Of a stretch of 20,869 nt of DNA, positions 933-16,737 are shown piece after piece. Numbering within the stretch: position 1 is the stretch's first letter; every line of letters starts with the position of its first letter. The position numbers and the translations under genes were made by a program. The notes beneath the pieces are model-generated. The model was given only the letters and a program-made list of their open reading frames with translations. It searched no databases and was not told the origin of the DNA. Location of the stretch: assembly GCF_006345805.1 (NCBI RefSeq), contig NW_021824043.1, forward strand, positions 1 through 20,869, read 5' to 3'. The stretch comes from Octopus sinensis. Taxonomy: Eukaryota.

Positions 933-1095
933 TACCGAGTAAACCATAAATGTGAAACAAGGTGGAAAAAAGAGTACTCAAAATACCAGTGGTAGAGTAT
1001 ATGCTTTATTTTAAGCAGCAGAAAATTCACAAAATCTGTTACGCCAGAGTAAAGATTTTGTTTTGAATTTTCTGCTGCTTAAAATAAAGTATATA
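933..1095. mobile_element. Foldback remnant of HHR-associated repeat family D
   Basis: Perfect 26-bp inverted repeat 1004-1029 / 1064-1089 plus CAAAATCT/AGATTTTG. 933-1050 is homologous to 15803-15925. Flanked by (TA)n on both sides. Confidence 0.75.
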
Positions 1096-4300: not shown

Positions 4301-4345
4301 CACACGCTGATGACGGGTTACTAATCAGAAACCCGGGTCCGCGTG
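4301..4345 (+). ncRNA. Type I hammerhead ribozyme motif at the apex of a long imperfect hairpin (family E)
   Basis: CACACG-CUGAUGA-C-GGGUU-ACU-AAUCA-GAAA-CCCGGG-UC^CGCGUG: intact core, GUC triplet, palindromic ACCCGGGU stem III. Stem I extends outward to 4255/4394. Confidence 0.75.
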
Positions 4346-4602
4346 TATCACGTGAGGCTGGACATGAGAACAATGATTTCCCTTCGCAAATACTGATCGG
4401 GTACAGACAGTGTGTCGCTAACCAGTTGGAGGAGATGTCTTCCTGGTGTTATAAACTACAGTAACATCGTCTCATATGTGTCAACCACATTTAGGTGGCA
4501 AATATACTTATATATACATATATATACATATGCATAAATGTAATATATATATATATATATATAATATATATATATATACATATACATATGCATACACGTG
4601 TG

Positions 4603-6273: not shown

Positions 6274-6820
6274 ATATATATATATATTATATATGTGTGT
6301 GAAATAGAAGATGAATAATCTTGTAGTAGATTAATCAAAAGTTTACCGATACTTAGTAGCAAAAATCACAGCAGTAAACAGCACGGTTGGAGGTACAACC
6401 ATATAGTGTTGCAACCGTGCGTTGGTGCGGATAATTGAAATTAAAACATTATGGTGAATTGAAGAAATGGAGCTGAACGCAGATTGAACAGAAATCGTTT
6501 TATTTCATTCTACACGTGTTTCGAAAGACACAAAATTACCAAAATCCGATTGAATAATGGGACCATATTGTGTCTTTCTCTCAGGAAGAAAAAAAGGAAA
6601 TCCGTTGGAAAAACAAAAACAGAACAGAGGCGGAGCAAAAAAAATCGAACTATGCTCCTAAGAGCCCAACGGATTCCTTTTTCTTATGAAGAGAAAAGAC
6701 ACAATATGGTCCCATTATTCAATCGGATTTGTGGTAATTGTGCCTTTCGAAACACGTGTAGAATGAAATAAACGATTTCTGTTCAATCTGCGTTCAGTCC
6801 ATTTCTTCAATTCACCAATA

Positions 6821-15802: not shown

Positions 15803-15960
15803 GCGCGCGCATGTAAGCACACAGATGAAAAACAACATGGAGAAAATTGTACTCGGGTACCAAATCTAGAGTTATATATTATTTTATTAGAATTCAAGAA
15901 TGACCTAAAACCTGTTCCTGAGAGTTTCAAGTAACCGCTCATCAGACGCTTGTGGCAATA
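15803..15960 (-). mobile_element. Repeat family D copy with decayed hammerhead motif (15911-15949)
   Basis: Minus: GCGT-CTGATGA-GCGGTTACTT-GAAA-CTCTCAG-GA-ACAGG. The body is homologous to 933-1050 and lies between two (TA)n tracts. Confidence 0.65.
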
Positions 15961-15967
15961 ATGATAT

Positions 15968-16030
<63 letters not shown>

Positions 16031-16147: not shown

Positions 16148-16327
16148 TTTAAGAGATGGGGAATTATGTACATTATTTACATTAGACAGATATTTGTTCT
16201 CATCTTGTTTGTTGTTAACACAACGTGTCCCCAAGACACTTGATGAAGGCTGGAGAGTAAACCAGCCGAAACGTTGTGCTAACAACAAACAAGATGAGGA
16301 CAAATACCCGTCAAATGTAAATAATGT
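16148..16327. mobile_element. Family C foldback with hammerhead motif (16235-16280, + strand)
   Basis: Inverted arms ~16170-16226 / 16271-16327. GACAC-TTGATGA-A-GGCTGG-AGAGTAAA-CCAGCC-GAAA-CG-TT^GTGCT (C3->U, perfect 6-bp stem II). Confidence 0.8.
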
Positions 16328-16341
16328 CAATTATGTACTAC

Positions 16342-16737
16342 TTTAATCTCAGGCGGATCTTCCGCCAGCTGATTATCGGAGCAACGCTGCACCCTATATA
16401 CGCATATATATTGCCAGCGGAGGGAGTGAATCCCTACCATCTTCTAGCAGACAACAGTTTCGACCTGTCTTCAGTTGGCTCGTCTTCAGTTGCGAGTACC
16501 TGTTCGCTAGAGCGATAGCCAGGGTCCGCTTCAGCCAGCAATATATTGTAAACAAAGCGACCATCGGTCACTGATTTGCAGGATGAGCCAACCAACTCGA
16601 ACCTCAGTCATTCTCACAATAATGTTATTTGCTAGAGGACGGTAGGGGTTCGCTCCCCCTACTAGCAATGTATATTGTATATATAGAGTGCCGCGCTGCA
16701 CCGATAACCAGTGGCGAAAGATCTGCCTGGGGTTAAA
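16342..16737. mobile_element. Old diverged foldback element
   Basis: 16342-16459 is a diverged inverted repeat of 16621-16737; the inner GTTGGCTCGTC / GATGAGCCAAC also pair. Confidence 0.8.

Follow-up and report, generated by a model that had tools for sequence, protein, structure and literature searches.

A Penelope-like element foldback in Octopus sinensis and the distribution of inversion junctions in its family

The foldback element at 935-1089

The window, i.e., the whole stretch of DNA that was analysed, is one entire unplaced contig of 20.9 kb (20,869 nucleotides), and the genome searched for related copies comprised 2.72 Gb. Element positions are numbered in the element sense, with +1 assigned to the first base 3' of the hammerhead ribozyme (HHR) cleavage site GUA^. 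The minus strand at 935-1089 carries the 3' end of a Penelope-like element (PLE), whose pLTR is inverted and whose tail lies on one side; the insertion is set in (TA)n. The following features were assigned:

913-931, no strand: (TA)n target microsatellite, left side (from the sequence; (TA)n flanks most family copies)
935-1003, minus strand: PLE tail, +38 to +108, on one side only (alignment; tail 31-mer with 3,359 exact matches)
1004-1042, minus strand: tail-bearing (sense) pLTR arm, -2 to +37 (alignment to family copy L143; fold of the family HHR)
1043-1044, no strand: inversion junction in HHR stem III, 2 unassigned nt (alignment; class of 55 exact junctions)
1045-1089, plus strand: inverted pLTR arm, -6 to +37, tail-less, stopping at the fixed +37 boundary of the family (alignment)
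1090-1110, no strand: (TA)n target microsatellite, right side (from the sequence)
15805-15972, minus strand: distant homologue (69%) with an HHR-like core at 15905-15945, not inverted (alignment)

The arms at 1004-1029 and 1064-1089, described in an earlier sequence-only reading as perfect over 26 bp with AATAAA read outward in each, are exact reverse complements (26/26) and both carry that motif. The pairing extends inward past the arms with a 3-nt bulge, giving a DNA fold of -36.8 kcal/mol and an RNA fold with z = -14.6 (none of 200 shuffles was as good). The foldback is asymmetric, as a tail of approximately 70 nt (935-1003) is attached to the left arm only, a feature absent from the earlier reading. 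In the alignment with L143, the tail-bearing arm extends to -2 and the inverted arm to -6. The junction is thus within stem III (-9 to -1), where the same reading had placed the centre, and the centre is about 3 edits from the exact stem III palindrome. The tail-bearing arm includes AATAAA and the 3' strand of stem I, and its HHR cleavage site falls between 1040 and 1039. Neither a CUGANGA nor a GAAA box was found in 935-1089 by sequence or alignment, in agreement with the proposed loss of the catalytic core. All that the window copy retains of the HHR is the cleavage site, one strand of stem I (the 3' strand) and remnants of stem III, so it cannot be a ribozyme. The locus is an ordinary dead retroelement fragment.

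The Rfam comparison of the window returned sub-threshold hairpin matches only, with no hammerhead family, among 150 of the 211 rows. One of these, to mir-553 at 1004-1089, was far under its cut-off and illustrates that such foldbacks are liable to be misfiled as MITEs or miRNA hairpins. The neighbouring segment at 800-912 is the end of another abundant repeat, which has a (TA)n run in common with the PLE insertion; the same pairing of repeats was seen in copy L023.

An assembly or chimeric-read artefact was considered, as the contig is unplaced, 20.9 kb long and carries indel noise. When public contigs of four runs were compared with positions 800-1200, repeats being skipped, none bridged the junction, a result that is uninformative in either direction; the 1-2-nt indels at the junction may for this reason be assembly errors. 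As an origin of the foldback itself, an artefact is barely credible, since chromosome-scale contigs carry the same layout and outer boundary at about 1,900 places; the structure is also asymmetric with family-fixed boundaries, and the flanking DNA is not duplicated. A chimeric read, which the earlier reading had named as contrary evidence, was rejected on these grounds (asymmetry, fixed boundaries, recurrences).

The segment at 15911-15928, which had been used as the homologous reference for the HHR, does belong to a real homologue (119 of 172 alignment columns identical to the window element; score 142 versus a maximum of 60.5 in 300 shuffles). It was nevertheless rejected as a close family copy, close copies being 85-100% identical. 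CUGAUGA and GAAA are present in it and the stem III palindrome is absent, which makes it a poor reference.

Family identity and its relation to known PLEs

Judged by its sequence features, the family is an endonuclease-bearing (EN+) PLE, and probably a Neptune-like one. EN+ PLEs have one ORF in which a C-terminal GIY-YIG endonuclease follows the RT. The tail 31-mer has 3,359 exact matches genome-wide, and most family copies are flanked by (TA)n. Two long copies (L131 and L074) continue upstream of the pLTR into an ORF that has a YRDD motif and a Cys cluster and ends in a GIY-YIG-like region, with C-terminal GVVY..YTG..R directly 5' of the pLTR; this link of the pLTR to an RT/GIY-YIG-like ORF was observed directly. 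Marks of the Neptune clade are a Cys zinc-finger-like linker between RT and EN and a (TA)n bias; the family targets (TA)n, and in one copy, L131, a Cys cluster that may correspond to this linker stands ahead of the GIY-like motif. Protein-atlas look-alikes carried RVT_1 and GIY-YIG at 0.94-0.98 in part of their members, Pfam returned 0 families in the 5 ORF pieces scanned, and a PDB search gave no relevant match. The one-sided tail, present in 78 of the 78 copies examined, is the start of the next unit: in L051 and L227 it continues into the 5' UTR and the ORF start. L227 is near-full-length: its body is inverted, a direct pLTR precedes the ORF, and an open stretch of 457 aa contains YRDD. The pLTRs of the family thus occur both directly and inverted (70 of 100 copies for the latter). 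In L051, also near-full-length, the inverted arm and not the direct arm begins at the tail end. A MITE or DNA transposon was rejected because of the one-sided tail, the variable centres and the linked RT ORF, and a non-autonomous origin was rejected because long copies carry the ORF. The pLTRs of family copies contain the HHR core boxes with stems I and II, a predicted ribozyme. Subfamily B copies (L054, L068, L070 and others) have a CCGA(C/T)GA core (U4C variant) in place of CUGAUGA.

The layout of the window element is already known, and the useful result is the family-level junction map. In the parts compared, Craig et al. 2021 (PMC8557442) describe inverted copies, a one-sided tail and a (TA)n bias in EN+ PLEs and treat the origin of the inverted pLTRs as an open question, and Arkhipova et al. 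2013 (PMC3846280) report palindromes at inverted junctions, read as self-priming. As far as those parts go, the window family resembles these elements in its inverted 5'-truncated copies, one-sided tail, pLTR HHR, (TA)n and junction palindromes, and differs in its tail of about 70 nt versus their 30-40. According to the consulted sections of Cervera and de la Pena 2014 (PMC4209133) and a review (PMC6765202), animal PLEs carry type I HHRs with a short palindromic helix III, which probably act as dimers. The family HHR is of this type, with a CUGAUGA...GAAA core and a short palindromic stem III, unlike the window copy with its stem III remnants, cleavage site and single stem I strand. A mapping of PLE inversion centres relative to the HHR or RNA start was not found in a literature search of mostly open-access texts without supplements (Fig. 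S2 of PMC11167929 may bear on it); the retrozyme preprint (bioRxiv 10.64898/2026.07.22.740005) did not cover inversion centres in the sections compared.

Position of the inversion junctions

Junctions were mapped in the first 100 listed of the 3,359 tail 31-mer matches, all on contig C1. Seventy of these tail-picked copies were inverted, a lower bound: among the remaining 30, about 7 carry an inverted arm that is very short, and one called non-inverted (L058) is a long inverted copy missed by the inversion calling. The sample includes one pair of neighbouring duplicates (L063 and L064). The outer ends are fixed at +108 and +37, and in 123 of 134 pairs the two arms do not agree at position +38. 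Most junctions of the 70 inverted copies lie 5' of the ribozyme, typically about 45 nt upstream of the stem III join; the whole HHR is kept in both arms of 34, in one arm of 15 and in neither arm of 21. None of the 70 had a stem III junction (upper 95% bound 4.2%). When arms still at risk of ending were counted in 12-nt bins, 7/122 ended at -11 to 0, 14/115 at -23 to -12, 25/101 at -35 to -24, 56/76 at -47 to -36 and 4/20 at -59 to -48. The inner arm ends meet a wall at -46, with 30/140 at -46 to -42 versus 2/140 at -51 to -47. The sequence-only reading had proposed mapping the inversion centres against the HHR and had named a random spread as contrary evidence; breakpoints are strongly non-random, as it anticipated, and their main cluster is at -47 to -36, not at stem III. 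Non-inverted copies end at the same wall: of 16 at risk, 7 did so, including one that has a tiny inverted arm.

The inverted arm was more than 5 nt longer than the tail-bearing arm in 30 of the 70 copies, shorter in 16 and similar in 24, and the two arm ends were correlated (rho 0.56, p 5e-7). Both arms ran past the wall in 8 copies and one arm only in 5. In 6 of the 70 copies, both arms ended at or after the cleavage site (association p 1.4e-4), which hints at cleaved templates, although coupled trimming would look alike. Microhomology of at least 2 nt was present at 19 of 43 insertion-free junctions versus an expected 17.5% (p 5e-5), insertions were found at 24 of 67 junctions, several of them copied from the element, and 35 of 67 junctions were blunt or insertion-bearing. 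Microhomology together with templated insertions resembles joining by polymerase theta. At subfamily sites the two arms of one copy disagreed in 4/71, 3/82, 2/93 and 1/132 cases (1-6%), in sets that overlap because some loci enter two of them, versus 43-49% for random pairs; snap-back or gene conversion would make the arms just as alike. In L067, L095 and L190, the arms differ at subfamily-diagnostic sites, possibly reflecting two RNA templates.

Position -46 is the A of an initiator-like CCATTCT, and a CCAAT box lies about 75 nt upstream (about -120) in 10 of the 10 long copies shown. On these motifs, -46 is the presumed transcription start. The consulted part of PMC2377424 places PLE promoters inside the pLTR. 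The wall could instead mark an RT stop, imposed by RNA structure, a bound protein or 3' splice-site processing ahead of the hammerhead. Such a stop would suit the 5' base of the extended stem I, which the fold places at -42, the textbook 3' splice acceptor at -40, the D. virilis intron that ends at helix I (PMC4209133, in the part compared) and a second hammerhead family, described below, in which about 4 of 30 copies end, by eye, 5-15 nt ahead of stem I. It fits less well with arms that pass the acceptor AG by up to 6 nt, none of them seen entering an upstream exon, with the order of copying, as the RT reaches the 3' strand of stem I first and few ends are there, and with the many copies of the tRNA-headed second family that continue to the tRNA-like head. 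On balance we regard an RT stop as rather unlikely. In L143, a polypyrimidine-YAG 3' splice acceptor is predicted at -51 to -40, just ahead of HHR stem I.

Foldbacks were also counted genome-wide with one anchor pair and binned by spacer length, giving 133 with 0-30 nt, 328 with 31-60, 563 with 61-90, 811 with 91-120 and 185 with 105-134. By hand count, 26 of 50 listed foldbacks of the 105-134 bin have a spacer of at most 120 nt; spacers of 91-104 thus account for roughly 715 foldbacks (about 50 per nt versus about 6 per nt beyond), out of about 1,900 in total. The exact stem III junction occurs at 55 places genome-wide (control 0) and is seen in 10 of the first 50 short foldbacks listed, 2 of them with one mismatch, an excess with p 6e-17 versus a uniform null over 416 possible insertion-free products. 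Its share scales to about 27 of 1,900, or about 1.4% of anchored foldbacks (about 1-2%). The junction at CTAG (-43 to -40) made up 12 of the first 50 listed among 811 places, scaling to about 195, so the stem III junction is about 7-fold rarer; further small palindromes recur at junctions in the 31-60 and 105-134 spacer bins. Inversion at stem III, as proposed earlier, thus recurs in short foldbacks and not in the tail-picked copies, and other palindromes serve as junctions at least as frequently. As a local microhomology hotspot, stem III is genuine but minor.

Origin of the inverted copies and other foldbacks in the window

The sequence-only reading attributed the inversion to strand switching at stem III, which corresponds to a polymerase folding back at a palindrome and copying its own product, a general form of which was proposed for junction palindromes in the parts compared of PMC3846280. 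The over-representation of symmetric palindrome junctions (stem III 10/50, CTAG 12/50, others recurring) and the private variants common to both arms are in line with it. Under a one-way snap-back the longer arm should always be the same one, whereas 30 of 70 copies are longer one way and 16 the other. At 18 distinct loci examined among those with the exact stem III junction, the tail-bearing arm supplied the unpaired central base in 10 cases and the inverted arm in 7, with 1 uncalled (10 A to 7 T). Since either arm may be the longer and either may supply the central base, simple strand switching is disfavoured. No hairpin is predicted for the stem III cDNA (0 kcal/mol), versus an intermolecular duplex of -7.8 kcal/mol; 35/67 junctions are blunt or have insertions, and non-inverted copies stop at the same wall. 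The pile-up of bulk-mapped junctions 46 nt upstream of the cleavage site is new relative to the compared parts of PMC8557442 and PMC3846280, and the arm asymmetry misfits the self-priming of 2013; thousands of young junctions in the window family argue against its one-way form. Palindrome foldback is largely refuted as a general rule, and the switching at stem III put forward earlier does not explain the foldbacks; it is very unlikely to be the origin.

A secondary deletion would be a different route to the same structure, with a longer palindrome centred near -43 losing its centre by slippage between the two copies of stem III, one in each arm, which form direct near-repeats. It predicts both that either central base is found and that either arm is longer. 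For a comparison of subfamilies and divergence, the first 41 short places contributed 40 and the first 41 long places 38, the four not used being a neighbour duplicate and three loci whose spacers exceed 104. Subfamily B, the more diverged, made up 24 of 37 short-centred versus 15 of 38 long foldbacks typed (Fisher p 0.038), and 9 of the 10 stem III junctions in the short-foldback set were typed B, as a later loss of the centre would suggest. When the subfamilies are taken separately, short-centred copies show no consistent excess of divergence over long-centred ones (A, 1.4% versus 0.8%; B, 2.8% versus 3.5%), and a deletion leaves the wall, also in non-inverted copies, unexplained. We consider this account unlikely.

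The window element is better read as a 5'-truncated head-to-head EN+ PLE insertion, likely made of two joined cDNAs of one RNA, with stem III likely serving as simple microhomology; we hold this to be probable, with some reservation. The PLE protein would cut both (TA)n strands and prime one cDNA at each end of the tail, both cDNAs would run off at the RNA 5' end (-46, the presumed transcription start), and host end-joining would trim and join their 3' ends. Two-end priming, run-off and end-joining are what we infer from the layout, the pile-up and the microhomology excess. Every palindrome of the element would be a microhomology because both cDNAs carry the same sequence, and stem III would be a ready-made one between two identical cDNAs, pairing as it does in the HHR dimer. 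The stem III duplex is the most stable of the three palindromes tested, which would account for the approximately 1.4% of junctions there. Ribozyme cleavage is not needed, as the junction contains sequence 5' of the cleavage site.

LINE-1 5' inversions arise by twin priming, in which both target strands prime and microhomology is found at the junctions, and the two LINE-1 cDNAs copy adjacent segments. In the window family, both cDNAs would copy the same segment, which is why a palindrome results, unlike in LINE-1. For PAc (Poseidon, Anolis), the parts compared of Frangieh et al. 2024 (PMC11167929) report that in vitro two fixed RT starts flank the tail and both strands are extended, that products become shorter when the RNA is truncated at its 5' end, and that HHR cleavage is not required. 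In PAc and the window family alike, the tail corresponds to the beginning of the next unit; PAc is a Poseidon element, of another clade than the window family, so the two-site priming shown there is that of a Poseidon element, and the joining of the two products and genomic inversion centres lie outside the parts of that paper compared. Within these limits, the junction map ties the 2024 result to a genomic structure. The wider proposition, that inverted PLE insertions are not products of self-priming but two cDNAs from one RNA, started at both tail ends, run off at the 5' end and joined by microhomology, with inversion centres that map the start and a 6/70 class that records in vivo HHR cleavage, seems to us evenly poised between right and wrong. 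If it is true, the inversion centres of thousands of copies would map the transcription start to a few bases, and the 6/70 class would be a record of hammerhead cleavage in vivo. The model makes a one-base prediction, i.e., an RNA start at -46.

Several other inverted or hammerhead-like structures were found in the window. A second hammerhead family, whose anchor 26-mer has 8,764 matches and of which 30 copies were examined (L228-L257), is older and composite; many copies are headed by a tRNA-like segment, close to which some head-to-head pairs are joined (L241, L248). One of its foldbacks lies at 16163-16334, with 67-nt arms that are 87% identical, the inverted arm ending near stem III and the other arm retaining the HHR, and a further copy at 1729-1870 on the minus strand has an HHR-like core at 1771-1822. 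At 6452-6817, between (TA)n runs, lies a palindrome of approximately 365 bp whose arms are nearly perfect. An imperfect inverted structure was recognised by eye at 16355-16720, and within it, at 16438-16489 on the minus strand, lies an HHR-like CUGAAGA...GAAA motif with a long stem II. On the plus strand at 4307-4351, an HHR-like CTGATGA...GAAAC motif adjoins a (TA)n-flanked repeat.
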